This document shows positions 4,533 to 40,799 of a stretch of 64,000 nucleotides of DNA, piece after piece. Source of the DNA: an uncultured bacterium (GTDB lineage Bacteria > Fidelibacterota > Marinisomatia > Marinisomatales > J089); NCBI GenBank assembly GCA_964535735.1, contig CAZHTM010000005.1, positions 13,017-77,016 on the forward strand. Direction: 5' to 3'. Made by a program: the position numbers and the translations under genes. The notes under the pieces were generated by a model. The model was not told where the DNA came from, made no database searches, and saw only the letters and a program-made list of their open reading frames with translations. The stretch's first letter is position 1. Each line of letters begins with the position of its first letter.

Positions 4533-4555
4533 GCTATTATGTATAAAATTGTGAA

Positions 4556-4756: not shown

Positions 4757-4975
4757 TACCGGTCGTCTAATATAACATAATTTAACATTATGAAACAGTA
4801 TTTATCATATTTGTTTTCATTATGACGTGAGATGAGCTTGAACTAATCCGAAAAACCACGCATTGGAGTTGTGATTTCTACGTGAGTATTTCTCTGATCA
4901 GTCGGGGAAGTTTAAAACGAAAGTATAACTGATTGGAACGAAATTAAACATTAGTTAACAGTTTTATTTGATCAA

Positions 4976-5743: not shown

Positions 5744-5863
5744 TGGTTACTCCTTTCAGTCTCCAGGTCTCAGGTACCTGGTTGGTACAGCATCCAAAAT
5801 CAGGATAGAAATTGGATCAGGACGATCAATTTTGCCACACCAAATTCATTAGAAAATTTATAT

Positions 5864-15210: not shown

Positions 15211-15576
15211 ATGTCAAAACGTGTCTTAGTCGTTGATGACGATCCCAATATTGTCAATCTTATCCGCGCATTTTTAACCAAAATTGGTTTTGAGGTTTTG
15301 GAAGCCAATGATGGCCTGGATGGTCTTCAAAAAGCCCGATCTGAAAATCCGGATCTGATTATTTTGGACGTGATGCTACCTAAATTGGATGGTTTTAAAT
15401 TCAGTCGCTTACTGAAATTCGATGAATCCCACCGCAATATTCCCATCCTTATGTTAACAGCTAAATCCGATGAAAAAGATGAAAAAATCGGACTAGCGAT
15501 GGGAGCCGATGCTTACCTAACGAAACCATTTAAAAACCAGGAATTAATAGACCAGGTGAAAGCCCTTGTTGCCTGA
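15211..15576 (+). CDS. Stand-alone CheY-like response regulator receiver
   Basis: VLVVDDDPNI, DLIILDVMLPKLDG, ILMLTAK and AYLTKP supply all canonical receiver residues. Confidence 0.85.
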   Translation: MSKRVLVVDDDPNIVNLIRAFLTKIGFEVLEANDGLDGLQKARSENPDLIILDVMLPKLDGFKFSRLLKFDESHRNIPILMLTAKSDEKDEKIGLAMGADAYLTKPFKNQELIDQVKALVA

Positions 15577-20762: not shown

Positions 20763-20822
20763 ATAAGTTAAATTAGAATTAGATAAAATTTGCTAAACAA
20801 GACACAACCAGGAGAATACATA

Positions 20823-21233
20823 ATGAAACGCAACCAAGAAGGATTCACCCTGATTGAATTGGTCATGGTGATTGTGATTCTGGGTATCTTAGCCGCCGTG
20901 GCAATTCCGAAATTTGCTAATCTGACAACTCAGGCGAATGAAGCCGCTGAAGATGGTGTAATTGGAGGACTGAGATCCGGAGTATATACGTACAGTGTCA
21001 ATCAAATGGCTGCAGGATTTGGTCAATCATATCCTACGGATCCATTTGACGGTCTTGATCAAAAACCCACTGGATATACATCTACTTCCCCCACTCCCGC
21101 CGCTAACAATACCTGGGGCTTTAATTCAACAAGCAATTATATATACCACCAACGAAGTAATGGTGACAAATATTATTGGTCCTATTCTTCCGGCACGGGA
21201 ACTATTGGAACGCGGACAACTACTGCTCCATAA
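20823..21233 (+). CDS. pilA: Major type IVa pilin (136-aa precursor, 7-aa leader)
   Basis: MKRNQEG|[24 protein letters not shown] class III signal. AGGAGA RBS. I moved the start from 20790 to ATG 20823. Confidence 0.85.
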
Positions 21234-22330: not shown

Positions 22331-24010
22331 ATGAATTCCAAACTCAACCATATCTCTGAAAAGATTCTCTTTCTGGCTCTTCTATTCTTTGGCTTTATCG
22401 TCAGCTACCATCGTATTCAAACCGGAGATATCTGGTGGAGTATGGCTGAAGGACGGTATATTTTTGAAAACGGGTATCTCCCGCAAGCAAATATCTTCTC
22501 TTATACAAATCCTGATGCCCCCTGGTCAACACCGCAATGGTTATTTTCACTATCTGCTTTTTTAATCTACCAATTGGGTGGAATTCCATTATTCATCATT
22601 TTGCGGATAATCCTTGTCGAAACAATTGTATTAACACTTTTCAAGACATTCCAAAATGAATTCAAAACTGTTTTATTGTCTGTTATAGGAATTGTTTGGG
22701 TTCTATTTGCTATCAATTTTAGACTTTTATTCAGAGCGCATTTATTTTCCGTGGTTTTTTTCACTTTGACAGTCTATTTTGTTTCTCGACCTGTTAAGAA
22801 AACCTCATACATAATATTATTTTTTATATTTCTCATCTGGAGCAATATTCATGCGGGTGTCTTATTCGGTTTATTCTTAATCCTATTTGTCTCGGTAGAA
22901 AACATAGCGAAAAATTTTCTTTTTAAACATATGACTTTTTATGAGTCCATTTTAAAGTCAAAATCTCTATTGATATTATTTTCAGTTTGTTTTCTTGGTG
23001 CTTTAGTCAACCCTCATCTTATTCAATTTATTACGTATCCCTATTCCCATCTCAATGTGAACGATCTCATATTGATCTCAGAATATATGCCCCCCAGTTA
23101 TTTTGGATTTGATAAGATGTTGTATTATTGGCTGACGATACCCATTTTTTTCTTATCCCTAGTGTTTTATGGAGTGAAAAAAAAGCAACTACCACCTTTT
23201 TTGTTATCAGCACTTTTTTTCCTTTTTCTCTCAATAAAATACAATCGGATAATCCCATATTTCGAAATCGTGGCAATAGGAATCATCCTGAAAACACCTA
23301 CTCAAGGGATTCTCCAGCGTTGGCACAATTTCCGATTTCAATGGATTTTGCATTTAGTTGCCATATATGCCCTGGTTATCGGTCCCTTAAACTTAATCAG
23401 TGGCGATAACAGAATCATGCCCACCTATAATTTTGGTATTGGTATTGACCCAACCGAGCTCCCTGTCCATGCAGTTCGCTTTTTAAATCAGCACCCGGCA
23501 CCTGATCCATATTTCAACGATTTTTTCTGGGGTGGATATTTAATCTGGAATAGTTATCCCGAAAAGAAAGTATTTATTGATGGTCGCATTCCCGCCTATC
23601 CTTCTGATTTTATCCATCTATACGAGGGCATGTCGTGGAATAAACAGATATTCGAAGCGGTTGATAGTTTATATAATTTTCAAACTCTTGTTATTATTAA
23701 CCCATATTCATTTCATTGGATGGACACCAGTCCCTTGGATAGAAACAATTGGGCATTAGTCTTTTGGAATAGTTACCAACACTCTGTCTATGTTAAACGC
23801 AATGAACAAAATCGGGCTTATATTAAAGAATTCGAATATAAACTTTACGATAAACCGTACACACCAGCAGGCTTGGCTCCCCTCATTCGTACAAAAGAAG
23901 ACACCTTACTTGCAATACAGGAAATCAAGCGACATAACTATTGGGCTCCTGATCCTATCGATAGATACTTGTTAAAATTATTGGACAATCCCCAGGCATC
24001 TGATGATTAG
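22331..24010 (+). CDS. Polytopic membrane protein (559 aa), GT-C-like glycosyltransferase architecture suspected
   Basis: At least 10 hydrophobic helices followed by a ~170-aa soluble C-terminal domain. I see no catalytic motif I can name, so the function is inferred from architecture and context only. Confidence 0.45.
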   Translation: MNSKLNHISEKILFLALLFFGFIVSYHRIQTGDIWWSMAEGRYIFENGYLPQANIFSYTNPDAPWSTPQWLFSLSAFLIYQLGGIPLFIILRIILVETIVLTLFKTFQNEFKTVLLSVIGIVWVLFAINFRLLFRAHLFSVVFFTLTVYFVSRPVKKTSYIILFFIFLIWSNIHAGVLFGLFLILFVSVENIAKNFLFKHMTFYESILKSKSLLILFSVCFLGALVNPHLIQFITYPYSHLNVNDLILISEYMPPSYFGFDKMLYYWLTIPIFFLSLVFYGVKKKQLPPFLLSALFFLFLSIKYNRIIPYFEIVAIGIILKTPTQGILQRWHNFRFQWILHLVAIYALVIGPLNLISGDNRIMPTYNFGIGIDPTELPVHAVRFLNQHPAPDPYFNDFFWGGYLIWNSYPEKKVFIDGRIPAYPSDFIHLYEGMSWNKQIFEAVDSLYNFQTLVIINPYSFHWMDTSPLDRNNWALVFWNSYQHSVYVKRNEQNRAYIKEFEYKLYDKPYTPAGLAPLIRTKEDTLLAIQEIKRHNYWAPDPIDRYLLKLLDNPQASDD

Positions 24011-26102
24011 AAATTTAGTGTCAATTCTTTGGGTGGGATTATTAATCATCCTACCCTTCGACCGGGGACCCGACACTCTGGGATTTAATACATTTTTAGT
24101 CTGTAGTGCGGCAGGTTTTTTATGGGTTTATTATATCGTAAGCATCAAGAAGACACACTACACAATCAGACAAGGATCAACCCTTTTAGCGTTTGGACTT
24201 TTTATTACTTGGATTTTGCTTTCCAACCTATGGACAATTGATGCATTTTCAACATATTACAAATCGCTGACCTACCTTTCAGCATTTATCATATTTTTTG
24301 TTACTATAAACTTACCAAAGTCGGACGTATCTGAATCATTCCTTATAAATACAGTTGTAGTCATCTTTGTAATAGAATTAGTCCACGGAGGAGTTCAATT
24401 TTTCTTCTCTGAAACAGGAGTCCCAATACAAGGTAGCGCCTTTCTTCGATCTCATGGAATTTTTGTCTGGCCCAACACTTTTGCCGGCTTCTTAGTCCTC
24501 ATCTGGCCACTGGTTTTTTGGATATTCCTGGAGTCAAAAAATAAAATAAAATCTGTCATCCTATATTTCGTTTTAATCACGGGAGTTTTCGTACTCGGTA
24601 CCACATATTCGCGTGGTGGTTGGTTAGCATTTTTTCTGTCATCCGGAGTCGTGAATCTTGTAATTATAATCTATTCCGGTCGATTCCGTTACTTTCTTAA
24701 CAAATTAAGGTGGGTAGGTTTCGGAATTGTCGTCGTTTTAATTTTGTTTAGTTTAATTCCAAACAGTCAGGTTGGCTCACGAATAACTTCATTCTCTGAT
24801 TTGGAATCTTTCGGTAGACTGGAAATATGGCAAAATACATTAACATTGGCGCTTGAAAAGATCTGGACCGGGTATGGTTTTCGCACCTTTCACATCACCA
24901 ATACACAATGGTTACCACCAGGAATACGCTTCGATTTTGCTCATAATGATTATCTCCAATTCCTTCTTGAATTGGGTGTCATTGGATTGGGACTATTCCT
25001 GGCTTTCCTGGCACTTCTGTCTTGGAAGGGGTGGACCTGGATCATATCACCAAACCAAAGCAATCTGAAATTCGCAACGATTACCGGCATGGGTGTAGGG
25101 GCATTAGGATTGTTGTTTCATACTTTTGTGGATTATCATCTATATATTCCAGGGAATCTGATGATCTTCCTCCTATTTATCGCCCTATTCCTTAAAAATC
25201 ATCCACAAACCACTACCCGGAAGTTTCCCATCACAGGAGAACATTTGTCCATCCCCTCTCAAAAATTTCTTGTAGCATTAACAATCATTATTCTTATCAT
25301 CCTAAGCTTGGTCCAACCGATCTCAAAATATTTTACTTCACTGGGTTTGCACGCGAAACAACTTCATCAATATGATCAGGCTTTGGAATATTACCGGTAC
25401 GCCTCCGCATTGGAACCACGTGTTGGCGACAATGCGGTTCATATTGGATCGGTTTACAGTACCCAAGCATTGTTAGAAGCTGATCACTTTACCAAGTGGA
25501 AATGGATGAATCTAGCGGAAAAGGAATTTCGCCACGCCACAACATTGGGTCCATTAACCTGGAATTACTGGCAGGCCCGGGGTGAGTTTTATAAACGCCA
25601 TTTATTGCAGTTTATCGCCAACGGTTTTCCATTGGAAAAACTTACGGTCCTTGATACCACTATGCCCGGCTGGGAGGACATGTGGCTCACTGTTCCAAAA
25701 ATGAATCGTTTTTTTCAGAAAGCGCTAAAATTATATCCCAATAATCCAGATTTGTGGATCGACCGCGCAGAAACGTGGCTCCAGTTTGAGCAACCGGAAT
25801 CATCACTCGTTTGGTTTGATAAATACATCGCACAAATGCCAAACGATTTATCGGCTAAGGTGGCCTACAGTGAAGCTCTATTGCAAATCGGGTGTTGGAA
25901 ACAATCTCTGAGTACGTTAAACAAGGTCATTGCAATCGATTCCTCTTACGGATATGCCTGGTATCTAAGAGGGCAAAATTTTTACCACCTTAATCAACTC
26001 GATTCTGCCCTGTTAAGTTTTAAATATGCAAAAAAAATTAATCCTGATGCACAACACATCACTTCATGGTTAGATTCTATTCTACTTAAAGGAATTTATT
26101 GA
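24003..26102 (+). CDS. O-antigen ligase (Wzy_C) family membrane protein with C-terminal TPR repeats; PglL/TfpO-like pilin O-oligosaccharyltransferase candidate
   Basis: SRGGWLAFFLS and FDFAHNDYLQFLLELGVIGLGLFLAF match the Wzy_C signature. The C-terminal ~250 aa are TPR-like (YDQALEYYRYASALEP...). Confidence 0.7.
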   Translation: MIRNLVSILWVGLLIILPFDRGPDTLGFNTFLVCSAAGFLWVYYIVSIKKTHYTIRQGSTLLAFGLFITWILLSNLWTIDAFSTYYKSLTYLSAFIIFFVTINLPKSDVSESFLINTVVVIFVIELVHGGVQFFFSETGVPIQGSAFLRSHGIFVWPNTFAGFLVLIWPLVFWIFLESKNKIKSVILYFVLITGVFVLGTTYSRGGWLAFFLSSGVVNLVIIIYSGRFRYFLNKLRWVGFGIVVVLILFSLIPNSQVGSRITSFSDLESFGRLEIWQNTLTLALEKIWTGYGFRTFHITNTQWLPPGIRFDFAHNDYLQFLLELGVIGLGLFLAFLALLSWKGWTWIISPNQSNLKFATITGMGVGALGLLFHTFVDYHLYIPGNLMIFLLFIALFLKNHPQTTTRKFPITGEHLSIPSQKFLVALTIIILIILSLVQPISKYFTSLGLHAKQLHQYDQALEYYRYASALEPRVGDNAVHIGSVYSTQALLEADHFTKWKWMNLAEKEFRHATTLGPLTWNYWQARGEFYKRHLLQFIANGFPLEKLTVLDTTMPGWEDMWLTVPKMNRFFQKALKLYPNNPDLWIDRAETWLQFEQPESSLVWFDKYIAQMPNDLSAKVAYSEALLQIGCWKQSLSTLNKVIAIDSSYGYAWYLRGQNFYHLNQLDSALLSFKYAKKINPDAQHITSWLDSILLKGIY

Positions 26103-26121: not shown

Positions 26122-27123
26122 ATGCCACAAAAGCTAAATAGATTTGAACGATATTTAAGTTCCAATTTAGGGTATGGGTCATCTTCTTTTACTTATAAAG
26201 AACTATTATTATTTAATGAAAAACTATTAGCTCAAATCCGGGCAGGCCAAATTCTCTCGGATGCACTTGAAGCTGTATTTGATACCACGGGAAATCGCGT
26301 CCAGAGGATGGTGCTATTCAGTATTACAAACGCCGTAAAAGCCGGTGCCCCTCTCTCCCAGGCTATGCTTACATTTAAAGATATTTTCCCTAATTTTTAT
26401 ATTGCCATGATTATGGCGACGGAAAGAAGTGGAAAAATGATTCAGGGTCTGGAAGCCATGAGCTTACACCTGAAGAACGAAAATAAATTGTTCGATTATT
26501 ACAATGTCTCTATGTTTTACCTGAGACTTCTGATTTATCTATTTTTAGCGGGAATGGTCTATTTATTTGTACGCTTGGGGATTTTAACTCTCTCTCTTGA
26601 CAGCATTCTCTACTCCACCGGCACATTAGCCTTTCTTGCTTTAATAGGTAGTTGGGTTAGTCGTATTCTACAGAAAAATGAAGTACTGAAAGAAAATATA
26701 TTAAACATTATACCATTTGCCGGAAAGATTCATAACTTGGCCTTGATCAGCAGTTATTGTTTTCTTTTTAATGTTTTTCATAGATCAGGTGTCCCCATTT
26801 CCCAGATCAATGGTTTACTTGTCAATTATATTGGCGGAGCTCATTTAGCTCAGGATATCCAACGACTAGGAGAATTGAGCCAGTCCAATCCCGACCCCGA
26901 TCGTTTACCTAAATATTTCACAGTTCTTCCGGATACTCTGGCGCGTGAAATTATTCTCTTTGAACATGGTAAGACTAAGTTCAATACCATTCAAAATTAT
27001 TCTCAGTTTGTCAGCATTGAAATCGATGACATTGCTGCTCAGATTCTTAGCTTGGAAAAACGAATTTTAATGGGCTCTTTAAGTATTGGCGCTTTAGTTA
27101 TTTATTTGTCCTTGATCTATTAA
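26122..27123 (+). CDS. Divergent, short GspF/PilC-family platform-like protein (333 aa)
   Basis: One recognisable T2SSF repeat (LSDALEAVFD...VKAGAPLSQAMLTFKDIFPNFYIAMIMATERSGKMIQGLEAM) plus TM helices. The second repeat is weak. Confidence 0.6.
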   Translation: MPQKLNRFERYLSSNLGYGSSSFTYKELLLFNEKLLAQIRAGQILSDALEAVFDTTGNRVQRMVLFSITNAVKAGAPLSQAMLTFKDIFPNFYIAMIMATERSGKMIQGLEAMSLHLKNENKLFDYYNVSMFYLRLLIYLFLAGMVYLFVRLGILTLSLDSILYSTGTLAFLALIGSWVSRILQKNEVLKENILNIIPFAGKIHNLALISSYCFLFNVFHRSGVPISQINGLLVNYIGGAHLAQDIQRLGELSQSNPDPDRLPKYFTVLPDTLAREIILFEHGKTKFNTIQNYSQFVSIEIDDIAAQILSLEKRILMGSLSIGALVIYLSLIY

Positions 27124-27245: not shown

Positions 27246-28286
27246 ATGGTCGATATTCTGGAATTGTTGAGATTTACTATTTCTTCCGGCGCTTCAGACC
27301 TCCATTTAAATGCGGGAGCCCCGCCCATGGTGAGAGTTGACGGAATGATGAAAAAAATTGATGTTCCTGATCTGCTACCAGAAGATATCCATCGTCTGAT
27401 TTATGATATCATGACTGACCAAGAACGAAAACGTTTTGAAGAAAATTGGGAATTGGATTTTTCTCGCGAAATCGGGTCCATAGGACGTTTTCGTGTAAAT
27501 GTTTATTACCAGAATGATGGAAAGGCTGCTGTCTTTCGTACCATTCCTACCAAAATTTTAACCATGGAAGAACTCAATTTACCCGATGTGATTAGAAAAT
27601 TATGCAATTTGGAGAAAGGGCTGGTCTTGGTTACCGGTCCAACCGGTAGTGGTAAATCCACAACCCTGGCAGCCATGGTAGACTATATCAATTCCGTTCA
27701 ACGATCCCATATCATTACTATTGAAGATCCGATTGAATTTGTTCATAAAAGTCGGTCTTGTCTAATTAGCCAACGGGAAGTGGGCCGCGATACTAAATCT
27801 TTTTCAAATGCTCTGCGGAGCGCATTGCGGGAAGATCCGGATGTAATCCTGGTAGGTGAAATGCGAGATCTGGAAACAATTGCATTGGCTATCAGCGCTG
27901 CGGAAACCGGACATCTTGTATTTGGAACGCTACACACCAATAGCGTGGCAAAAACCGTGGATCGAATCGTTGATGTATTTCCCACGAATCAGCAAGGACA
28001 AATCCGATCTATGTTTGCCGATTCTATTGAGGGTATCATTTCACAAATACTTTTACGTCGGAAAGAAGGGAAAGGTCGGGTGGCCGCTTTAGAAATATTA
28101 GTGGGAACAAATGCGATTCGAAGTTTGATCCGGGAAAATAAAACATACCAGATTGAATCAGCACTACAGACGGGATCATCCCTGGGTATGTGTACCATGG
28201 AACAAGCCCTTCGAAAGCTACTACAGGATGGAGCTATATCACGTGAAGCGGCCCAAGAAATTATTCCTAAAATGGACGTAACCTGA
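27246..28286 (+). CDS. pilT: PilT retraction ATPase, copy 2 (most canonical)
   Basis: GASDLHLNAGAPPMVRVDG, GPTGSGKST and AIRSLIRE, 346 aa. Confidence 0.9.
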   Translation: MVDILELLRFTISSGASDLHLNAGAPPMVRVDGMMKKIDVPDLLPEDIHRLIYDIMTDQERKRFEENWELDFSREIGSIGRFRVNVYYQNDGKAAVFRTIPTKILTMEELNLPDVIRKLCNLEKGLVLVTGPTGSGKSTTLAAMVDYINSVQRSHIITIEDPIEFVHKSRSCLISQREVGRDTKSFSNALRSALREDPDVILVGEMRDLETIALAISAAETGHLVFGTLHTNSVAKTVDRIVDVFPTNQQGQIRSMFADSIEGIISQILLRRKEGKGRVAALEILVGTNAIRSLIRENKTYQIESALQTGSSLGMCTMEQALRKLLQDGAISREAAQEIIPKMDVT

Positions 28287-28307: not shown

Positions 28308-29426
28308 ATGAATTTTAGCGATCTGATGAAATTAATGGTGGAAAAAGATGCCACCGACCTTTACATCTCAGTCGGAAATCCACCGATGTATCGAATTGGG
28401 CATGAAATCTATCCTGTAAGTTCTACCAAGCTTACTCCCGCTATGACCGAAAAAATTGCATATTCATTTTTAGATGAAAAACAGGCCAGGGAATTTCAAG
28501 AACATCATGAGATCGATATAGCCTATTCGGTACCGGGAGTTGGTCGGGTGCGGATAAATATTTTCCTGCAACGTGGATCAGTTGGATTAGTATTGAGACA
28601 TATCAAGTCGGAAATCCGCACTCTGGAAGACCTGGGCATGCCGGCTATTATCAGTAAAATTTGTGATACACCTCGTGGACTTGTTCTCATCACCGGTGCC
28701 ACCGGCAGTGGTAAATCCACAACGTTGGCAGCCATGATCGACCACATCAATTCAACCCGTACGGGGCACATCGTTACCATCGAAGACCCCATGGAATTTT
28801 TACATTACCATAAAAAATGTATTGTCACCCAACGTGAAGTGGGAATGGACACCGAATCCTATGCCGTCGCATTGAAAAGTGCCTTACGTCAGACACCGGA
28901 TGTTCTACTGATAGGAGAAATTCGAGATCGGGAGACCATGAAGGCGGCTTTAACTTTTGCAGAAACCGGTCATTTAGTTTTCAGTACCTTACATTCAGTC
29001 AATGCATCACAAACACTTGAACGGATCATGAATTTCTTTCCCGTTGATAATCACCCAATGATTCGTCAACACCTTTCATTAAACTTACGCGCGATCATCT
29101 CTCAGCGACTCGTCACTCGCAAGGATGGTTCCGGGATGGTAGCTGCCCTGGAGATTCTGGTGAATACATCACGAATTAGTGACTTGATGTATAAAGGTCT
29201 CATTGATGAAGTAAAAACAACCATTGGCGCATCCCGTGAGTCGGGAATGCAAACTTTTGATCAACATCTTTTTGACCTTTACAAGGAAGGGATAATTTCC
29301 ATGGATGATGCCCTCACAGCAGCAGACAGCGCCAATGATTTGAAACTACATATGAAAATGGAAGGTGCCGAAGTGGAAGCCGATCGTAATATGATGAATG
29401 AAACCATTACGTTTCGCGATGATTGA
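28308..29426 (+). CDS. pilU: PilU-like PilT-family ATPase
   Basis: DATDLYISVGNPPMYRIG and GATGSGKST. It lacks the AIRNLIRE motif (SRISDLMYKG) and has an extended C-terminus, as in PilU. Confidence 0.8.
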   Translation: MNFSDLMKLMVEKDATDLYISVGNPPMYRIGHEIYPVSSTKLTPAMTEKIAYSFLDEKQAREFQEHHEIDIAYSVPGVGRVRINIFLQRGSVGLVLRHIKSEIRTLEDLGMPAIISKICDTPRGLVLITGATGSGKSTTLAAMIDHINSTRTGHIVTIEDPMEFLHYHKKCIVTQREVGMDTESYAVALKSALRQTPDVLLIGEIRDRETMKAALTFAETGHLVFSTLHSVNASQTLERIMNFFPVDNHPMIRQHLSLNLRAIISQRLVTRKDGSGMVAALEILVNTSRISDLMYKGLIDEVKTTIGASRESGMQTFDQHLFDLYKEGIISMDDALTAADSANDLKLHMKMEGAEVEADRNMMNETITFRDD

Positions 29427-30208: not shown

Positions 30209-33046
30209 ATGGAAAAACATCACTTGATAAACACACCCAAAAAAGCATCTGGGTTTACCCTTTTTCAGCTCGTTGCACTGATTGTCGTGCTGGGAATCTT
30301 GGCAGCTACAGCTATCCAGGTAGTGGTGATACTGACCCCGTCAAGTTGGGAAGCCGAAGCATTAGCGGAAATGGAAAAAATACGTTGTGGGATTGTTGGA
30401 TGTACCGAAGGCGACTGCGGCTTTATTGGCGATAATGGAGCCATTCCATCTCAACTACAGGATTTACTGGAGGACCCGGGTTCTGGTCAATATTGTAACT
30501 GGCTAGGCCCCTATTTGGATGTAACCTTCGTTGACAACCCCTATGATTATCTCTATGATCCGTGGGGGAACCCTTATATCTGGGACACACAAAACTTAAC
30601 GCTAACTTCGACCTCTGGAGGAAATGGCGCCGAACCCCTAACCATTTCACTGGCCAATGAAGTTACCGATCTATTAAGTAATACCGTTCAATATCAATTC
30701 ACTGATGCCAATGGTTTGCCATTAGATTCATCATCCATTGATGTCTATGTGAATTACGGTTGTGGAGACATTAAACTTGACTATAGCGCTTCCCTTGGTT
30801 TTTATGGAGAAGGATTTCCAACGTGTGGACTGGAAGTCGTTGTCGTGTCTGGTGTCGATACGCTTCATCCACCTGCTTGTCCTGACCCGCCCTGTGATCC
30901 AGCGCCAATAACTTGTGATTACGGAACGATACAATATTCAGGATCAGCAGCCTTAAGCGGAACCATGAATGACGTCATCTCTTTTCAGGCCAGCGCCACA
31001 GGAGATTGTCAGTTCGATATTAAGAGTTTGTCCTTCGAATGGTCAGGTTCCAACTGGTGTAACCAAACACCTTATTTAGAAACATTTAAAGTAGGTGGTA
31101 GCACTTATTGGGATTATCAAGTCGATAACAACGGCGTTCGCGCTGTGTCTGGTCAAGAGATGGTCTTGAGAAGTACTCTTATTGCAAACCCCGGCACTAC
31201 ATTGAATATTACTGAAGTAAAATATGCCGATGCTCGCACCGGGTCAGCAAATCCCATTCAATTAGATGGGACCACATTCAATTTCTTTCTTTATTCTGAT
31301 TTAGCGCCCACTCAGTTGATTTCTTTCACCGCACCGGGGACTCCCCCGACGGCCGGTTCTTTGATCTATTCGAGTGGGACGCTTGAAACTTCCGGGAGTG
31401 ACCGCCAAAATATTTCCTTCGATATTACTAATCCAGGTGAATGTTGCGTCACAATCAGTGGAATGATCGTTTCTTGGGACACAACATCCACAATTTCCTA
31501 TCTGGAAGAAATTAAAATCGGAGGAACTACGTATTGGAAAGATAAGGAATGCAGAATTGCCTCCGGTCAATATTTAGCATTGGATGATATTGTCACTATT
31601 TGTGATGCCACCAAAACTATAGAATTAAAAAGTTTCACTACCGATCGTGGTTCAGATTGGGGGGACTATTATTCCGATCCCACAAGCACCTCTACAGTAA
31701 GCGGGTCAATTAACATCAATCCTAATAATAGCACATATAATCAATTCTATCTTGTGAAAACTGATGGTAGTCTGATTACCCGGGATGATTTAACCCAATC
31801 GGCTTCTGATTTCCAGGGAAGCGCTATCTGGGTTCATGTTAAACCCAAAGGAAATGGTAACCAGAACGGCCTCACGGTCAATGGATCATCCTATGCCGTG
31901 GATAACGGAAAACAATATGATATTTCTTCCAGCAATATGACCGTGAATCTCTACAACGATAATCGTTCCGGGGGACTGGCATTAGGTCAGTGGTGGATCG
32001 ATATAACCGCCACCGACGCCGTTATCGCTGAAAATGGCCATGGCTATTACTTGGATGATGAATCCAATTCATATTCAGAATACATCCATCGATATGCGTG
32101 TGAAAATCTGGAGGGCGGCGGCGGCGACCATGGGGATCATAATGACCATGGAGATCATGATGATCATGATGATCATGGGGATCATAACGACCATGGAGAT
32201 CACGACGACCACGGTGATCACAATGATCATGGGGATCATAGTGGTAGTTCCGGTTCATATTATTCACCTCCTGATTGTCCTGATGACGACGGAGATGGTA
32301 AAATTACCATAACGCATTATCCTTCCGGGGATACAGACCATCCTCAGGTTATCTGTATTTCAACCGATGCCTGGGACGCACATAAAGCCCATGGTGACGA
32401 GTGCGGAACACCGGCTCAAGAAGATAGCTATGAATGTTCAACAGAGAAAGATCATGTAAGCGGGAACGGAGATAAAGTGGATATGCGGGGACATCAAATT
32501 GAAGTCACCTTCATCGCTACAGATGGTACCCAGTATCCTTTTGTATTCAATACCGAATCCCGGAACGGACCTAATCTTGTTATTTACAATAACAATATCG
32601 ATGTCTCCGGGTCTGGACATTATACTGTGGAATTCGACGTGAAAAACACAGGAGATAGCCCCTTACAAATCAAACAAATAACGGCATCGTGGGATAAATC
32701 CAATGCCTATGCCTCCAAATTCAAAGTTGGTAGTACAACCTACTGGAATGCGGGTAAAGATGAACGGTTATCCAGTGGTGGCGTTTTGGATCTTGATAAT
32801 TATCTATATTTGGAAGCCAATAAACGCGTTACACTGAAGTACTATAAATTCAAAGACAGTCTAACCGGTGGAGACTATACAGACATGCGCGGTGTTGATT
32901 TCACGGTCATTTTTACAGGTGTTGGAGATGATAATGACTATACTCTTTCCTTCACAACACCCGGTACCAGTGGAGATGATCACAACGATCATGGGGACCA
33001 CGATGACCATGGAGACCATGGTGACCACGATGATGATGATCATTAA
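30209..33046 (+). CDS. Giant pseudopilin-like protein P1 (945 aa): prepilin signal with Gln at +5, GspG-like head, three copies of an unnamed beta domain, two Asp-His repeat tracts
   Basis: KKASG|FTLFQLVALIVVLGILAA; GFIGDNGAIPSQLQDL; DPWGNPYIWD; repeat units around aa 241-376, 385-478 and 795-918; DH tracts at aa 640-677 and 923-945. Confidence 0.8.
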   Translation: MEKHHLINTPKKASGFTLFQLVALIVVLGILAATAIQVVVILTPSSWEAEALAEMEKIRCGIVGCTEGDCGFIGDNGAIPSQLQDLLEDPGSGQYCNWLGPYLDVTFVDNPYDYLYDPWGNPYIWDTQNLTLTSTSGGNGAEPLTISLANEVTDLLSNTVQYQFTDANGLPLDSSSIDVYVNYGCGDIKLDYSASLGFYGEGFPTCGLEVVVVSGVDTLHPPACPDPPCDPAPITCDYGTIQYSGSAALSGTMNDVISFQASATGDCQFDIKSLSFEWSGSNWCNQTPYLETFKVGGSTYWDYQVDNNGVRAVSGQEMVLRSTLIANPGTTLNITEVKYADARTGSANPIQLDGTTFNFFLYSDLAPTQLISFTAPGTPPTAGSLIYSSGTLETSGSDRQNISFDITNPGECCVTISGMIVSWDTTSTISYLEEIKIGGTTYWKDKECRIASGQYLALDDIVTICDATKTIELKSFTTDRGSDWGDYYSDPTSTSTVSGSININPNNSTYNQFYLVKTDGSLITRDDLTQSASDFQGSAIWVHVKPKGNGNQNGLTVNGSSYAVDNGKQYDISSSNMTVNLYNDNRSGGLALGQWWIDITATDAVIAENGHGYYLDDESNSYSEYIHRYACENLEGGGGDHGDHNDHGDHDDHDDHGDHNDHGDHDDHGDHNDHGDHSGSSGSYYSPPDCPDDDGDGKITITHYPSGDTDHPQVICISTDAWDAHKAHGDECGTPAQEDSYECSTEKDHVSGNGDKVDMRGHQIEVTFIATDGTQYPFVFNTESRNGPNLVIYNNNIDVSGSGHYTVEFDVKNTGDSPLQIKQITASWDKSNAYASKFKVGSTTYWNAGKDERLSSGGVLDLDNYLYLEANKRVTLKYYKFKDSLTGGDYTDMRGVDFTVIFTGVGDDNDYTLSFTTPGTSGDDHNDHGDHDDHGDHGDHDDDDH
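32126..32239 (+). repeat. In-frame imperfect 9/18-nt tandem repeat encoding (DHx)n: DHGDHNDHGDHDDHDDHGDHNDHGDHDDHGDHNDHGDH
   Basis: 13 consecutive Asp-His dipeptides spaced by G/N/D. The DNA units gaccatggRgatcataaY recur with synonymous wobble differences. Confidence 0.9.
32975..33043 (+). repeat. C-terminal Asp-His tract DDHNDHGDHDDHGDHGDHDDDDH ending P1
   Basis: Read directly from the ORF. It immediately precedes the stop codon at 33044-33046. Confidence 0.9.
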
Positions 33047-33066: not shown

Positions 33067-33098
33067 TCCTGGTCGGGGAACATCTTCCTTGACCAGGA
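33067..33098 (+). terminator. Extended hairpin between P1 and P2 (possible attenuator/partial terminator)
   Basis: TCCTGGTC-GG-GGAA-CATC-TTCC-TT-GACCAGGA followed by TTATTCTATTC. It lies in the 63-nt gap before ATG 33110. Confidence 0.35.
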
Positions 33099-33109
33099 TT
33101 ATTCTATTC

Positions 33110-34732
33110 ATGACATCCAAATCACATAGCATCGTGGCCTCCAACATCAAAAAATCCGGTTTTACTCTCATTGAACTTGTGATCGTAATCATTATCATGG
33201 GCATTCTAGCAGGCATTGCCGTGCGCACCACAACCCGGATTGCCCTGAATGCCAAATTCAATGAAACGTATGAAGAAATGCAATTGTTGGTAAAAGCCAT
33301 TATTGGGGATTCCAATATTATTCAGAATGACGTTCGTACCAGCTTCGGTTATGTAGGCGACACTGGCGTGATGCCACCGACACTGGACGACTTAATGTCT
33401 AATGTATCAGGCAAAACAGGTTGGGCCGGGCCGTATATGGACGCGGGTTATACTCAAGATCCTGACTTTTATAAACGGGATGCCTTCGGAAAACAATACC
33501 GATATGTTTTACCCACTGTAGGTACCGAGGCTCCTAAGATTTGGACACCTACGGATGGTGATACAATTACTGTAAAGATTGCCACTAGTTTAAACGCCAT
33601 TTTAAATAATACAATTAAATTGCGATTATACAGCGAAAATGGCGTCGAAATTAACGGGACAAATGGATCAGTGGCAGTTAGCTACAGTGGAGCCTGGCAT
33701 CCCCTGACGTATAGTTCATCAACAGGATTTAAAATTAACACTGTTCCTATCGGATTGCGTCAACTCCGTGCAATTTCCGCGGGAGATACTGTCTATAAGA
33801 CAATTTCAGTAGAAGAGGCAAACGGAACAACGGGAAATACTTTAACAATGACGGTATACCCTGATTATGGTAATTTGACATATGTTTCCGGATCGGCTTC
33901 TATCTCCGGCGCGGGAAATAACCAGGTTTCCTTTACGGTGACTAACACCGGAACGCCTACGTTTGATATTGATAGAATGACTATTACCTGGGAAGCATTA
34001 CCAAACGATTGCTGGAATTGTAAAAAGGCTTACTTGGCCGAAGTCCAGAAAACCTCGACATACTGGAAATGGAATACCAATGGTCGGTCAGCTTTGGTTC
34101 CCAGTGGCGCTCAGATCGTTTTAGATGGTACTATGTCCCTCTATACCGGACCTAATTCCATCGGTCCACTCATATTTTTGGATGGCACCGATGGTACCAC
34201 GGCCAATACTATCAATATGAACGCCACACGTTTTACGATCCGGTTTGAATCATCCACCGCTCCTTCACAGACAATCACCTTTGATAACGCAACAACGTGT
34301 GCTGCACCCAGTCTATCCCAAAATGGAGCCGCCACCCTGATCGACGGAGCGCGTTTATCGGTACCAGTACAAAATCCCGGTGTATTGCCCGTCACGATTA
34401 CATCCATGACCGTATCCACTGATATTACCACATCGACCGCCTATCTGGATCGTATTCGTTTCGATGGCGCAGATGTCTGGCTGGCCAACGTAACCGCCTG
34501 TAGCAATGTGGCTCGTCCCACGGTAGCAAACAACGCTACGGGAACAGCCGATTTTCTCATTTGCACCTATGCCCTCCCGACAATTAACGCCGGATCAACC
34601 GCTACTGTAGAAATACGGCTAAGGAAAGATCCTACTGGAACAACAAATGTTCCTGTTGCTGTCGGTCAAAGTTATATCCTGGTGTTTAATCTCCAGTGTG
34701 GTAGCTCCCAAACGATTGCCTTCACGTTGTAA
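33110..34732 (+). CDS. Giant pseudopilin-like protein P2 (540 aa)
   Basis: KKSG|FTLIELVIVIIIMGILAGIAV; GYVGDTGVMPPTLDDL; DAFGKQYRY; two C-terminal repeat domains with CWNC at 34010-34021. I moved the start from TTG 33089 to ATG 33110. Confidence 0.8.
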   Translation: MTSKSHSIVASNIKKSGFTLIELVIVIIIMGILAGIAVRTTTRIALNAKFNETYEEMQLLVKAIIGDSNIIQNDVRTSFGYVGDTGVMPPTLDDLMSNVSGKTGWAGPYMDAGYTQDPDFYKRDAFGKQYRYVLPTVGTEAPKIWTPTDGDTITVKIATSLNAILNNTIKLRLYSENGVEINGTNGSVAVSYSGAWHPLTYSSSTGFKINTVPIGLRQLRAISAGDTVYKTISVEEANGTTGNTLTMTVYPDYGNLTYVSGSASISGAGNNQVSFTVTNTGTPTFDIDRMTITWEALPNDCWNCKKAYLAEVQKTSTYWKWNTNGRSALVPSGAQIVLDGTMSLYTGPNSIGPLIFLDGTDGTTANTINMNATRFTIRFESSTAPSQTITFDNATTCAAPSLSQNGAATLIDGARLSVPVQNPGVLPVTITSMTVSTDITTSTAYLDRIRFDGADVWLANVTACSNVARPTVANNATGTADFLICTYALPTINAGSTATVEIRLRKDPTGTTNVPVAVGQSYILVFNLQCGSSQTIAFTL

Positions 34733-36345
34733 TGAACACCCGTCGATATTCCCCTGTCCCCGGATTTACTCTGATAGAGCTGGTAATGGTTATCGTAATT
34801 ATGGCCATTGTTAGTGCCGTGGGGATTCGTACGATTGCCCGAGTAAATGCAAACCGGAACTTCAATATTACCATGGAAAACATGCTTAATTTAAAGTATG
34901 CCATCGTAGGTAATCCCAAAATGGTAGAAAACGGTGTCAGGATTGATTACGGTTATGTAGGTGATACAGGCCAACTACCAACCAGTTTGAATGACCTTAT
35001 GACTGACCCCGGCGTTGCCGGTTGGGATGGACCTTATGGGGACTATACCGGAATTCAAGAAGATCCTACTGCCATATTTCGGGATGGTTGGGGAAAGACC
35101 ATCACGTATACTGTACCAAACAACAATACCGATCCCATTACACTGTCCAGTGCCGGAGGAGGATCACCTATTGAATTGATCGTCGCTAACAATAAAAATG
35201 AAATTTTAAACAACACTGTTGCCCTTCGGGTTAGAAATAAAGATGGATATCCGCTCAGAGGTGATGATGCTACTGTCCAAATCCAATACGGTGGCGGCAC
35301 CTGGCAAACCCTATCGTACGCAACAACTTTAGGCTATTATATTGATACCGTTCCGATTGGCATGGCCACCTTACGGTTTATTGTGGCGGGCGATACGACC
35401 CTTCGCCAGCTCAGCGTGGGTCCCAACAATTCCACGACTAGCCCTAACGAAGGATTGGAATACACCGTAAATCCCGTTTTTGGAACACTAAACTACGTGG
35501 CCGGTTCCGCAAGTCTAGGAGGCACCAATAACTCGGAATTAACCTTTACAGTGAATAATTCTGGTAGTACGATTATGGAAATCGACCAAATCAGTGTTGG
35601 TTGGTCGAATTCATCCTGTTGGGAATGCGATTACGCTTATCTGGCGAACATCACGGTTAATGGAACCGATTATTGGCGCTGGAATACAACGAATCGTAAT
35701 GCTTTGGCATCTACTGACGCTCGGTTGGTGTTGGACCAGAAACTCTCCCTTTCATCCGGAAATACAACCATTGGTCCCCTTGCTTTCCAGGATCTGGTAG
35801 ATGGTACCGGTTCGCCCCAACCTATGAATGCGGTCACGTTTCAGATTACGTTTTTATCGGATCTGACGCCGAATCAAATTGTTAGTTTTTCTACGGGAGG
35901 CACCTGTTCGCCGGCAGTCATTTCCTATTCGAATTTATCCAAACCACTGAATTATCGCGTACGGTGTCAGCTGGATAATACGGGGAATGCTAAAGCCACC
36001 ATCACCGGTATGAATATTAAGTGCGATGTGAGTCCTTCACCTTACCTAGATGTTATTTCTTTTGTAGACTTAACAAACATTTACTGGCAAGCCAATCAGT
36101 CCTGGTGTGGTAATCAATCCCGACAATTGGTTGATAATTTGAACGGAGCTGAGATCACATTCTGCAAAACACAACCGCCAGTAACGGTCCCAGGAGGGAG
36201 TTACATATTGTTAAATCGGATGGACTTTTATACGAGTGCTCAAGCGGATGATAACACTAAAGCAGATGTTACCGGTGGAAATTTCACGTTAACACTCCAT
36301 TTCAAATGCGGATCTGATCAAACGATCTCTTTCACCATGCCTTAA
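34732..36345 (+). CDS. Giant pseudopilin-like protein P3 (537 aa)
   Basis: MNTRRYSPVPG|[16 protein letters not shown]; GYVGDTGQLPTSLNDL; DGWGKTITY; CWEC at 35617-35628. The ATG overlaps the P2 stop by 1 nt (TAATG). Confidence 0.8.
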   Translation: MNTRRYSPVPGFTLIELVMVIVIMAIVSAVGIRTIARVNANRNFNITMENMLNLKYAIVGNPKMVENGVRIDYGYVGDTGQLPTSLNDLMTDPGVAGWDGPYGDYTGIQEDPTAIFRDGWGKTITYTVPNNNTDPITLSSAGGGSPIELIVANNKNEILNNTVALRVRNKDGYPLRGDDATVQIQYGGGTWQTLSYATTLGYYIDTVPIGMATLRFIVAGDTTLRQLSVGPNNSTTSPNEGLEYTVNPVFGTLNYVAGSASLGGTNNSELTFTVNNSGSTIMEIDQISVGWSNSSCWECDYAYLANITVNGTDYWRWNTTNRNALASTDARLVLDQKLSLSSGNTTIGPLAFQDLVDGTGSPQPMNAVTFQITFLSDLTPNQIVSFSTGGTCSPAVISYSNLSKPLNYRVRCQLDNTGNAKATITGMNIKCDVSPSPYLDVISFVDLTNIYWQANQSWCGNQSRQLVDNLNGAEITFCKTQPPVTVPGGSYILLNRMDFYTSAQADDNTKADVTGGNFTLTLHFKCGSDQTISFTMP

Positions 36346-36638: not shown

Positions 36639-39080
36639 ATGCCCAGGGGGAACCATCCATCTGCACTAGACTCCTCCCTCACCCAACGTGAAATATATCT
36701 TCCGGTTTTAACCGGATTTCATTTTGGTCTAATCCAAGTATCCAGTTATTTCCTGTTTCAATGTTATTACACAGCCACATTTATGGGGTATTTTTTCTTG
36801 GGCGTGGCTTGGATTGTAGGCGTCTGGTTAAATCTTCGGTTTGGAAAACCATTAACATTACGACATAGTCTCTATTTATCTGCCGTATTCTATCTGCTCC
36901 TAGCTTTGGCTTTGGTTCGGGGAACTCCGAACGGATTTTTCATTCCTATTTACGAATTTCTGATTCTCGGAATAGCCGCACCTGCTGGAGCTCTTTTTCG
37001 GACACGGGCATCCACACAACCCACAGCCCACCTGTTTTTCCATGAAAACAACGGGTTTGTCATGGGATTTGTGGTTAGTCTTCTAGGATTTGTCCATTGG
37101 GGTGTCCGTTCACCGTTTATTCTTCCTGTAATCTCTTTTATTCTAATTCTACTTATATACCGTTATGGTTCTTTAAAATATCCATTAATCGTTCTGGGAA
37201 CAGGAACAATCCTTTTACTTTCCCAAGGTCTCTTTGATATAGCATTTATGATAGGATTTTTTATCTTGATCCTGTTTTTCGCACGCAAATTCACAATCCC
37301 GGTTGTAAATCAGAATCAGGAAATTTCTGCTCCGGCTATTTCTGTTTCGGGAAAAAAAATGATTCTTTTTCTCTCCGGATTTAATTTAATCATACTTCAA
37401 TTTTTTATAACCCGGGAATTTTCAACATTGTTATCCGCTTCTGAATTGTCAATACTCATCGTGGCTACAGCCTATTTCACAGGTTATTCCATCGGCTATC
37501 TCGTGGCTCCTCGTATCCCCGAAAAGTTGATTCCATTTTTAGGGTGGTTCATCCTCTTCCTCCATCTGGATATCTTTCTCTTCCTGCGATATTTTGCCGC
37601 TCTTTTAGTATATCTCGGGGCCGGATGGTGGGTGCTCATGGGACTATTGTTTATAACATCCCTTTTTACCTCAGCATTTTATTCCCTGTTTCTTCCGCGG
37701 TTGACCGATAACCGTACATTACACTTGAAATTAACTTCTACCTATTCACTGGAATTGGCAGGAGCAGTTGTAGGTACAATTTTCTTGGTCATTCACACTC
37801 TTTCGGGAGCCCGGTGGATTCAACCTGTATATTTTTTCATCCTGCTAAGCATCCTTTATCTTCTTCAACCTCGGGGCCGATGGAAGTTCACACCTCTGAT
37901 TGGAGCGTTGGGTATACTCCCTTTTCTGATATTCTATGGCCCGAAATTAAACCAAACTGTCATCCGGGATTATTATGCCCTGCGGGGGTACAGTAATCCC
38001 ACAATTTGCTATCAAACAAATAGCCTATATCATACCATCGAAATTTTAGACACCCACCCGCAGCCGGGCTTCCCTGCCGATGGTCGTTGGTCATTTATTA
38101 ACGGTGTCCTGTACTTTGGGTACCAAACTGACACTTCCGGTGCTTTTATCCAGGAAACAGGATTATCTGAATTCACTTATTTTTTAGCAGAACTCCCTGC
38201 TCGTTACCAGGTCATAAGTACTGGTCGAAAACTCAACATTCTGATTTTAGGATGTGGATCGATGTATTCCATTGGTCGTGTGGGACCTTATGCCGATAAG
38301 ATCCAAATGGTGGAAATTGACCCTGAAATCGTCCGGTCTGCTAAAGCTTGTTGGAGCCAACTGAATCAATATGATCAATGGCCCAATGCTCAAATCATCA
38401 TTGATGACGCTAAGCACTTTATTCGTACCCAAGACACGGTTTACGATTTAATCATCATGGATATTTCAGCACCTTATACTCTGGGAACTTTACTTTTACA
38501 CAATCAGGATTTTTTCCGAATCCTGAAGGATCGACTGGCTCCCGGTGGTTTGTTCGCCGAATCCACGCAAGGACGAGCCGATCCTGACTATCCCGAAAGC
38601 CAGGGGATGAAAATCCTAGCAGGTGTTGTCAATGAATATTCTGAAACTCTGGTACTAAATACCTATGGAAGTGGTCATGGTAACCATGGATTTGTCTATT
38701 CCTCCCAAGATGATTCTATCGATTGGAAACGCATGGATTCACTTCTTATCGCAGATAATATGCGATCCGGTGTTCGACTTGAAACAGACTGGGATACAAA
38801 AGTGGACTGGACCACAATCCGACCGTTTACCTATTCGAACATGGAAACACTTTTATCAGGAAACATCTGGCGCTTGACTGACCGGTTAGAACTGGATCGA
38901 ACATTTCTGGACCTAGACTGGTTACGTCGACGTTGGTCGCGATTAGCTACCTTTCATTTACAATTACCCCAAGAACTCCGTCAGCTTTTCCGGTCCCCGT
39001 GGTTTTGGGTTTGGTTTGCTTCTTTTGGTGTGACGTTTATTTGGTCTTACGGACCTTTTACTTCTAAGCGCCAAAGCTGA
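36639..39080 (+). CDS. Polytopic membrane domain fused to spermidine-synthase-like (class I MTase fold) C-terminal domain (813 aa)
   Basis: About 12 TM helices in the first ~430 aa, then YHTIEILD, ILILGCGSMYSIGRV, VEIDPEIVRSAK, IIIDDAKHFI, YDLIIMDISAP and LKDRLAPGGLF, co-linear with SpeE-family motifs. The glycine-rich loop is GCGSM rather than GGGDG. Start uncertain. Confidence 0.65.
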   Translation: MPRGNHPSALDSSLTQREIYLPVLTGFHFGLIQVSSYFLFQCYYTATFMGYFFLGVAWIVGVWLNLRFGKPLTLRHSLYLSAVFYLLLALALVRGTPNGFFIPIYEFLILGIAAPAGALFRTRASTQPTAHLFFHENNGFVMGFVVSLLGFVHWGVRSPFILPVISFILILLIYRYGSLKYPLIVLGTGTILLLSQGLFDIAFMIGFFILILFFARKFTIPVVNQNQEISAPAISVSGKKMILFLSGFNLIILQFFITREFSTLLSASELSILIVATAYFTGYSIGYLVAPRIPEKLIPFLGWFILFLHLDIFLFLRYFAALLVYLGAGWWVLMGLLFITSLFTSAFYSLFLPRLTDNRTLHLKLTSTYSLELAGAVVGTIFLVIHTLSGARWIQPVYFFILLSILYLLQPRGRWKFTPLIGALGILPFLIFYGPKLNQTVIRDYYALRGYSNPTICYQTNSLYHTIEILDTHPQPGFPADGRWSFINGVLYFGYQTDTSGAFIQETGLSEFTYFLAELPARYQVISTGRKLNILILGCGSMYSIGRVGPYADKIQMVEIDPEIVRSAKACWSQLNQYDQWPNAQIIIDDAKHFIRTQDTVYDLIIMDISAPYTLGTLLLHNQDFFRILKDRLAPGGLFAESTQGRADPDYPESQGMKILAGVVNEYSETLVLNTYGSGHGNHGFVYSSQDDSIDWKRMDSLLIADNMRSGVRLETDWDTKVDWTTIRPFTYSNMETLLSGNIWRLTDRLELDRTFLDLDWLRRRWSRLATFHLQLPQELRQLFRSPWFWVWFASFGVTFIWSYGPFTSKRQS

Positions 39081-40681: not shown

Positions 40682-40799
40682 TTCTCAACTCAAATTAAGT
40701 CATCTATGAACATGTTTAAGCCGAAAAAATATCCTTTGTTTAGCATGACTTGCAGGGTTGCGAAATAATACCGGGTGGTTTAGTTTCTGCAACATTCCC

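Follow-up and report, generated by a model that had tools for sequence, protein, structure and literature searches.

The 64,000-nt stretch of DNA analysed here (the window; assembly GCA_964535735.1, contig CAZHTM010000005.1, positions 13,017-77,016, forward strand) comes from an uncultured Fidelibacterota (Marinimicrobia) bacterium. It contains a complete type IVa pilus gene cluster, inside which a multimodular pilin-like protein of 945 residues, here called P1, is encoded. P1 carries two dense Asp-His tracts, and is probably a single tip-capping modular minor pilin rather than a bulk filament subunit. We give an even chance to the reading that P1 caps a retractile type IVa pilus and that its disordered tracts chelate divalent transition metals, for contact or for linker compaction. 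The Asp-His feature is real, unusual and recurrent in its clade, yet it belongs to a narrow uncultured group, is non-essential there, and its proposed function is drawn from chemical analogy.

Tract 1, DHGDHNDHGDHDDHDDHGDHNDHGDHDDHGDHNDHGDH, consists of 13 uninterrupted D-H-x units (16 Asp, 13 His, 6 Gly, 3 Asn) following a GGGG stretch, and tract 2, DDHNDHGDHDDHGDHGDHDDDDH, is a free C-terminal tail of 23 residues with 7 His and 12 Asp. Both had been picked out at these positions in an earlier sequence-only reading of the DNA, and both were confirmed on reading. Together they hold 20 of the 33 His residues of P1, and 28 Asp. The tracts are far above chance expectation: in 20,000 shuffles of P1 the longest D-H-x run was 3, compared with 13 observed, and DH dipeptides averaged 3.7 (maximum 12), compared with 22 observed. 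A six-frame scan of the 64-kb window revealed no further Asp-His tract. Open reading frames (ORFs) in other frames across tract 1, at 32034-32312 (+) and 32022-32267 (-), were set aside as stop-free by-products of the repeat. A phmmer search of the tract against Protein Data Bank (PDB) sequences gave a collagen-like GD peptide at E 4 only, which was dismissed as compositional.

The tract is genuine. NCBI, JGI/IMG and Logan all have a record of the identical 945-residue protein, which was also called on two contigs outside the window, one from JGI (3300023548) and one from a Logan assembly of SRR9849951. Over the whole P1 gene, the DNA of the Logan contig is the same as that of the window. An assembly artefact, which the sequence-only reading had raised as a concern, is thereby ruled out for tract 1. 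No tract length variants were seen among the three assemblies (window, Logan SRR9849951, JGI 3300023548). In a related metagenome-assembled genome (MAG; locus L010, 76% identity), a 100-N scaffold gap at L010 7674-7773 spans the expected tract 1 region, a sign that the repeat may make assembly difficult in some data sets.

P1 begins with a class III (prepilin) signal. Its leader, MEKHHLINTPKKASG, is followed by FTLFQ, and the cleavage region reads KKASG followed by FTLFQLVALIVVLG. The mature N-terminus, FTLFQLVALIVVLGILAATAIQVVVIL, supplies the roughly 20 hydrophobic residues of an alpha1N segment, and an AlphaFold2 (AF2) model places a helix at residues 18-33. In a 7-sequence alignment of the family, residues G15 to V27, including Q20, are invariant; residue -1 is Gly in nine of ten homologues and Ala in L007. 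The head module weakly matches the gspG family (TIGR01710, E 1e-4, under the family cutoff), and is 33.6% identical to the neighbouring 168-residue GspG-like pilin (BLASTP, E 2.5e-12). Pfam N_methyl did not match P1, and a P1-family profile searched against PDB sequences gave weak matches to N-terminal pilin helices only (MshA, geopilin; E about 0.06-0.1). The description of P1 as pilin-like is borne out by the class III leader, the resemblance of the head to GspG, and the prepilin peptidase and full type IVa pilus machine encoded in the window.

The residue at position +5 of mature P1 is Gln in all ten P1 homologues. The other five pilin-like proteins of the window (168, 147, 547, 537 and 551 residues) all have Glu5, making P1 the sole Gln5 protein among them. 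The absence of Glu5 is a known exception of the tip-capping pilin subunit (PMC10191384), and modular pilins that carry bulky grafts occur widely, with exposure at the tip expected of them (PMC8179133). Because P1 has Gln5, unlike the other pilins of the window, and carries an extension of about 800 residues, we read it as a tip cap; the filament subunit proposed in the sequence-only reading is, for the same two features, unlikely. With P1 at the tip, any metal binding would take place there rather than along the filament.

The domain structure of P1 is that of a modular pilin, in which the pilin module is followed by beta-sandwiches, a middle domain, a beta-beta-alpha His/Cys module (the mini-domain) and a terminal sandwich. 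The AF2 model, run on the 7-sequence alignment, has a mean predicted local distance difference test score (pLDDT) of 55.8. Residues 15-444 are 27-30% identical to three pilin-like paralogues of about 540 residues encoded downstream (BLASTP, E 4e-40 to 5e-44), and the beta-sandwich domains at residues ~240-480 mostly have pLDDT >70. The part of the profile covering the middle beta domain matches proteins of 900-1200 residues by itself, and residues ~790-920 again match the beta-sandwich of the paralogues (BLASTP, E 2e-6 to 2e-5). A Foldseek search of the whole model against the PDB returned generic chains of Ig-like, macroglobulin and adhesin domains only (TM-score about 0.1), and warrants nothing beyond the description of P1 as tandem beta-sandwiches. 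Residues 608-750 and 921-945 have pLDDT 22-35, with no secondary structure inside the tracts (tract 1, 22-29; tail, about 30). Both tracts are thus predicted to be disordered, and both lie at domain boundaries.

The tracts match known chelating segments in composition, as the sequence-only reading had claimed, and experiments have shown binding of Zn, Fe(II) and Mn by peptides in which Asp and His alternate (PMC11938343, PMC9472272). The peptide Ac-HDHDHDHDH-NH2 has Kd values of 1.8e-7 M for Zn(II), 6.3e-6 M for Fe(II) and 8.4e-5 M for Mn(II) (PMC11938343), and in poly-His/poly-Gly peptides from snake venom the primary site for Zn(II) is VDHDHDH (PMC9472272). ZnuA has His-rich loops that bind Zn via His and Asp/Glu, and have been proposed to act as scavenging antennae (PMC9175090). 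Because Asp/His peptides have been measured as binders (PMC11938343, PMC9472272), chelation by the tracts is chemically well founded; metal binding by P1 itself, and its biological role, we infer by analogy. There are precedents for metal-dependent roles at pilus tips, including the metal-ion-dependent adhesion site (MIDAS) of Streptococcus sanguinis PilB, in which metal binding by the distal module is important for adhesion and twitching (PMC8179133), and calcium binding by PilY1 (PMC8833165).

In the mechanism that we propose, the prepilin peptidase encoded in the window would cleave P1 after Gly15, and the hydrophobic N-terminal helix would hold P1 in the filament core. With Gln5 in place of Glu5, P1 would pair with no subunit above it and occupy the very tip, resting on a priming complex of the adjacent pilin-like proteins (168, 547 and 537 residues). 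The extension of ~800 residues would form a chain of beta-sandwich domains, with tract 1 joining this stalk to a distal unit (a DxDxDG loop, the His/Cys module and the last beta-sandwich), and tract 2 serving as a free tail. From neutral pH into the alkaline range, the tracts with their 20 imidazoles and 28 carboxylates should chelate several divalent transition-metal ions (Zn2+, Ni2+, Cu2+, Co2+, Fe2+). The likeliest purpose would be a metal-bridged contact between the pilus tip and metal-bearing particles or surfaces; alternatively, metal may compact the linker and so determine the geometry of the adhesin at the tip. Uptake of metal as a nutrient seems a less likely purpose.

A bolder version of this mechanism, which we consider distinctly unlikely, is a retractile "fishing line" for metals or minerals. 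The tip tracts, the DxDxDG loop and the mini-domain would grip metal, PilT/PilU would pull the cell or the metal in, and tract length would be tuned in each lineage to how much metal is available locally. Engineered His-tagged pili exist, and such a fishing line, if true, would be their natural counterpart, and modular pilins would gain a new functional class.

The same residues might instead act as pH sensors, with the tracts forming a polyanion above pH ~7 and becoming nearly neutral below pH ~5.5, and pH altering how far the distal adhesin domains reach or how exposed they are. The computed net charge changes from -15.1 at pH 7 to -2.6 at pH 5 for tract 1, and from -11.6 to -4.4 for the tail, and both tracts are predicted to be disordered and lie between domains. 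We saw no sign of the organism meeting such pH swings. Moreover, identical residues would bind metals over that pH range, making this explanation, which we regard as very unlikely, hard to tell from metal chelation.

To follow the tracts among relatives of P1, the P1 family was assembled from seven 90%-identity clusters and a few loci from genome and metagenome scans (two loci from the metagenome scan). All homologues with a named source belong to Fidelibacterota, Neomarinimicrobiota or FCB-group (Fibrobacterota-Chlorobiota-Bacteroidota) MAGs. When 1.84 billion representatives were searched exhaustively with a profile, a single full-length 50%-identity representative came back, the other matches being per-domain, and by these searches the family appears to be a narrow clade. 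Gene order around P1 is conserved in the homologous loci. The His content of the two tract sites is given in Table 1.

Table 1. Number of His residues at the two tract sites of P1 and its homologues.
Homologue	Site 1	Site 2
P0001 (P1, window)	13	7
L006/P0010	9	6
P0002	7	2
L007	6	6
L011	7	9
P0003	4	5
P0004	3	3
P0005	2	2
P0006	2	1
P0007	0	0

The two sites are enriched in His in nine of ten homologues, relative to ~1.5% His elsewhere in each protein (Fisher p 0.02 to 4e-15). Absence of the tract from close homologues, which the sequence-only reading had offered as grounds for dismissing the feature, is therefore not what was found; the search for presence and length polymorphism that it proposed showed tracts at the same two boundaries in nine of ten, with varying units, the number of His per site being 0-13 across all ten. 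Tract length ranges from 14 to 51 residues. The repeat units differ by lineage: DHG/DHN/DHD (9/45 nt) in the window, GSHNDH in L007 and DDHS (12 nt) in L011. These differing units and periods point to repeated expansion towards the same composition. A His-rich stretch was present in 3 of 149 more distant relatives of individual P1 domains. Low complexity rich in His at both boundaries is thus a recurrent, clade-specific trait that has arisen or been remodelled several times, and this recurrence favours selection on composition. In P0003-P0006 and L011, the tract 2 site is a linker leading into an additional DUF7467 domain.

A more distant protein, L014 (metagenome contig Ga0207797_1005296, ORF 3519-5822; the same protein as P0140), has 35% identity and the N-terminus GFTLFQL. 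It contains GQGHGHGHGHG beyond the mini-domain, on its other side from tract 1, and ends in a (GK)5 tail. These repeats look like an alternative low-complexity solution at equivalent positions.

At the DNA level, Tandem Repeats Finder (TRF) reported periods of 9, 18 and 45 for tract 1. The tract is best described as a repeat with a base period of 9 nt (GAY-CAY-NNN), on which a 45-nt duplication of higher order is superimposed (87% matches); for the 18-nt period, matches fall to 68% and indels reach 16%. Between the two complete 45-nt units there are seven differences, six of them synonymous changes at third positions. Of the imperfect 18-nt repeat with wobble differences described in the sequence-only reading, the wobble differences stand, while the 18-nt period gives way to the better-fitting 9/45-nt description. 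The length variation by slippage that it envisaged has little support: repeat copies within the tract are now 65-83% identical, and present slippage potential is therefore low, with no variant among the three assemblies.

A further explanation puts the weight on Asp, with His secondary: the Asp-rich tracts and the DxDxDG loop would serve to bind Ca2+/Mg2+ ions, or would attach to carbonate, phosphate or oxide minerals or nucleate such minerals. The two tracts contain 28 Asp, and the loop stands right after tract 1 in all homologues. It is kept in 10/10 homologues and in the distant L014 (variants DDDGDG, DSDGDG and DVDGDG), with D692, D694, G695, D696 and G697 invariant in the 7-sequence alignment, and reads as a putative Ca2+ motif. 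PilY1-type tip adhesins are Ca2+-dependent through Dx[DN]xDGxxD (PMC8833165). In DDDGDGKIT of P1, the DxDxDG part of this consensus is present, and position 9 is Thr, not the final Asp. Poly-Asp stretches also precede some stand-alone copies of the mini-domain. The strict alternation with His is left unexplained, and tract 1 of P0002, L006 and L007 has 6-9 His and only 2-3 Asp. We consider this explanation highly improbable.

Chemical modification is another possible role for the repeats, in which the period-3 His repeats would be modified, as His-Xaa-Ser repeats are by radical-SAM (S-adenosylmethionine) enzymes, or the flanking Ser/Gly residues would be glycosylated by a Wzy_C-family protein. 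Residues 639-683 weakly match NCBIfam HxsA4 (NF038313; E 1e-4), with a compositional score of 23.1 bits against a cutoff of 55. The unit of P1 is H-x-D, not H-x-S, and no radical-SAM domain was found in window ORFs of at least 150 residues, while the HXS system needs HxsB, HxsC and HxsD (PMC13128918). An HxsA-like modified repeat protein was rejected on these three grounds of score, unit and neighbours. A Wzy_C + TPR protein, a candidate pilin O-glycosyltransferase of the PglL/TfpO kind, is conserved in the pilus cluster; glycosylation would touch Ser, not the DH units. Modification of the tracts seems to us scarcely credible.

The mini-domain after tract 1 was searched as a profile, which matched 222 small proteins at E<0.01 (60-100 residues with a signal peptide, all hypothetical), with the consensus KVTICHIPPGNPDNAHTIxVSxxAVPAHLAHGDxLGxC. 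Carriers include Flavobacteriaceae, Acidobacteriota, Zixibacteria and one Nitrososphaeraceae archaeon, and the mini-domain also occurs many times inside secreted proteins of >1000 residues. It matches no Pfam or NCBIfam model, and a fold search of the PDB found no counterpart. AF2, run on its own alignment, modelled a beta-hairpin and a helix at pLDDT 80-90. The conserved residues, four His (two around the hairpin, two i/i+3 on the helix), one Asp and two Cys, suggest a small metal site or a disulfide-clamped knot. Widespread, unannotated and secreted, the mini-domain is worth a study of its own.

Several observations weigh against the reading of P1 as a metal-chelating tip pilin. Its tip location we infer from Gln5, size and analogy, while Pfam and NCBIfam hold no T2SSK or GspK match that would support GspK/PilX membership, and the pilin head is badly modelled (pLDDT <50 over residues 30-234). 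Pfam and NCBIfam scans found no metal transporter, metallochaperone or metal-responsive regulator near the P1 gene. A fixed coupling of tract and mini-domain is unsupported: L011, with long DH tracts, has lost three His of the adjacent mini-domain, and the stand-alone mini-domain proteins have an acidic stretch upstream in 16 of 119 cases and a His-rich stretch in none of 119. The ratio of synonymous to non-synonymous changes in tract 1 comes from seven differences alone. P0007 has no His at either site, having a Gly/Asn/Ser linker in a syntenic locus, and the His tracts are therefore dispensable; in some homologues the count is just 2-4 His, which means that the core role does not need a large capacity for chelation. 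Dispensability and large quantitative variation together disfavour an essential role. Tract evolution is fast, as expected of weakly constrained low-complexity linkers.

The last points are also those on which the main rival explanation builds. According to it, the tracts are flexible hydrophilic spacers without a ligand, and their Asp/His composition is a by-product of GAY-CAY-NNN expansion and decay under near-neutral drift. The siting of both tracts at domain boundaries, their predicted disorder, the ranges of length and His number among homologues with one His-free linker, the degenerate tandem repeat in the DNA and the lack of metal genes near P1 are all consistent with a spacer. His is rare in linkers, yet it is enriched at both sites in nine of ten homologues, with different repeat units and periods across lineages and a GH repeat again in the 35%-identical L014. 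The 6:1 synonymous excess in the duplicated unit also argues against unconstrained drift. Since just 3 of 149 distant domain relatives have a His-rich stretch, compared with nine of ten in the family, the composition is specific to the P1 clade and to the two sites, which disfavours the spacer explanation. We judge it unlikely, though a serious contender; if the tracts prove to be neutral linkers, they would be a compositional curiosity of a narrow clade.

The features of P1 and of the pilus cluster are listed in Table 2. The cluster also encodes a sigma-54 activator and a Laminin_G_3 (concanavalin A-like lectin/glucanase) protein.

Table 2. Features of the type IVa pilus cluster and of P1 (window coordinates; residue numbers refer to unprocessed P1; E5, Glu at +5).
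Feature	Coordinates	Strand	Basis or remark
Type IVa pilus machinery	7062-29426	+	Pfam, NCBIfam
PilM-N fusion	7062-10136	+	
PilO	10120-10680	+	
Secretin	11211-12578	+	
PilT-like ATPase	12585-13691	+	
Prepilin peptidase (PilD)	15566-16354	+	
PilB, MshE-type N-terminus	16366-18018	+	
PilC	19442-20671	+	
Small pilin, 147 aa, E5	20790-21233	+	
Wzy_C (O-antigen ligase-like) + TPR membrane protein	24003-26102	+	Conserved within pilus cluster here and in homologous loci
T2SSF-like, half-size	26122-27123	+	
PilT	27246-28286	+	
PilU-like	28308-29426	+	
GspG-like pilin, 168 aa, E5; opens pilin block, 12 nt upstream of P1	29690-30196	+	Pfam T2SSG, N_methyl; TIGR01710 E 1.2e-13
P1 (= P0001) gene, multimodular pilin-like protein, 945 aa	30209-33046, stop codon (33044-33046) included	+	ORF list
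Class III (prepilin) signal; leader aa 1-15 ending Gly15; Gln20 (nt 30266-30268) = +5	30209-30334	+	Sequence, 7-sequence alignment
Pilin head module, GspG-like, aa 14-127	30248-30589	+	TIGR01710, BLASTP
Region paralogous to three ~540-aa pilin-like proteins, aa 15-444: head + beta-sandwiches	30251-31540	+	BLASTP, AF2
P1-specific middle beta domain, aa ~489-620	31673-32068	+	AF2 strands, pLDDT 45-65
GGGG (aa 636-639) + tract 1 (D-H-x units aa 640-677, nt 32126-32239)	32114-32239	+	Sequence, TRF, AF2
SGSSGS spacer after tract 1	32240-32257	+	Sequence
DDDGDG, DxDxDG-type loop, aa 692-697, candidate Ca2+ site just after tract 1	32282-32299	+	Alignment
Beta-beta-alpha His/Cys module, aa 698-733, KITITHYPSGDTDHPQVICISTDAWDAHKAHGDECG	32300-32407	+	Profile search, AF2
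C-terminal beta-sandwich, aa 750-920, extra copy of paralogues' sandwich	32456-32968	+	AF2 pLDDT 72-90; BLASTP
Tract 2, free C-terminal tail, aa 923-945	32975-33043	+	Sequence, AF2
Two ~540-aa pilin-like paralogues, E5: 33089-34732 (547 aa), 34732-36345 (537 aa)	33089-36345	+	N_methyl / TIGR02532
Third ~540-aa paralogue, 551 aa, E5	40758-42413	+	N_methyl / TIGR02532

The three ~540-residue paralogues share 38-46% mutual identity, each having a GspG-like head and beta-sandwiches, and the block is conserved in related MAGs. The set of giant "minor pilins" is unusually large in this cluster. A membrane protein with a spermine/spermidine-synthase-like domain (36639-39080, +; 813 residues) lies after the pilin block, and has a counterpart likewise after the pilin block in the P0003 locus (L003 19842-22844; 1000 residues). 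A response-regulator diguanylate cyclase is encoded just downstream of the pilin genes (43101-44003, +), and also in locus L005. Together with the MshE-type, cyclic di-GMP-binding N-terminus of PilB, it suggests control of the pilus by cyclic di-GMP.

Two multihaem c-type cytochromes (58674-59285, -, and 59391-60053, -; Paired_CXXCH_1, cytochrome c7-like, with a weak MtrC/MtrF domain match) adjoin a sigma-54 two-component system about 25 kb from the P1 gene. Their presence is a hint that the organism may carry out extracellular electron transfer or metal respiration, and any link to P1 would be conjectural.

Type IV pili gain functions via modules grafted onto tip pilins, and the grafts on tip pilins that are known to us are folded domains (lectins, vWA). 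If the proposed function of P1 is true, a disordered, His-dense chelating tract at the tip would give type IV pili a new means of interacting with what is around them. It would bear on mineral attachment or metal sensing by uncultured, particle-associated Fidelibacterota/Marinimicrobia of marine or sediment habitats, and would offer a natural template for metal-capturing protein nanofibres. The sequence-only reading knew of no pilin with such tracts, and our literature search likewise found no description of a natural pilin with a His-rich tract.

Among known systems, the modular minor pilins (S. sanguinis PilB with its vWA/MIDAS module, PilC, CofB of enterotoxigenic Escherichia coli, and GspK of the type II secretion system) have, like P1, an N-terminal pilin module and bulky modules, and are predicted to be tip-located (PMC8179133). 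The modules of P1 differ in being unannotated beta-sandwiches and a His/Cys mini-domain, its candidate metal sites are disordered rather than a folded MIDAS, and at 945 residues it is longer than the 860-residue extreme of the modular-pilin survey (PMC8179133). Like the GspK/PilK/PilX cappers (PMC10191384), P1 lacks Glu5 and is the largest protein in an adjacent pilin-like block of a type IV pilus cluster. Unlike GspK, it has no Pfam T2SSK match, its head is GspG-like, and its partner minor pilins are themselves modular proteins of ~540 residues. PilY1/PilC adhesins are associated with the type IVa pilus tip and depend on divalent cations (PMC8833165), and the conserved DxDxDG loop beside tract 1 of P1 resembles their EF-hand-like Ca2+ sites, though without the last Asp of the consensus. 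PilY1, which is no pilin, carries a beta-propeller at its C-terminus, whereas P1 has no PilY1 domain (Pfam) and only beta-sandwiches in its AF2 model.

The ZnuA loop and the N-terminal HxHHxH of ZinT (PMC9175090) are, like the tracts of P1, stretches of His and Asp/Glu in an exported protein, disordered there and predicted to be so in P1. In ZnuA, the loop lies next to a high-affinity site within a cluster A-I solute-binding fold that works with an ABC importer; P1 has no solute-binding protein domain and no ABC transporter nearby, and its tract is longer and strictly periodic. The venom peptide DHDHDH-H6-PGSSV-G10 and Ac-HDHDHDHDH-NH2, for which binding of Zn(II), Cu(II), Fe(II) and Mn(II) has been measured, share with P1 Asp/His beside Gly runs and Ser/Gly (PMC9472272, PMC11938343). 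They are short, free, animal or synthetic, and have period 2 (DH) rather than period 3 (DHx), so the likeness is one of chemistry, not homology. HxsA of the HXS anti-phage system (PMC13128918) is exported and has period-3 His repeats like P1, with five HxS repeats compared with 13 H-x-D units. It needs two radical-SAM enzymes and HxsD, absent in the window, and, unlike P1, carries a peptidoglycan-binding domain, its site of action being the periplasm (PMC13128918). By sequence, P1 is a modular pilin with the Glu5-less mark of a capping subunit, outside the GspK, PilY1, ZnuA and HxsA families. By analogy with these systems, it would be a modular pilin of the tip, set apart by an unusual "module" in the form of a disordered, putatively chelating Asp/His tract.

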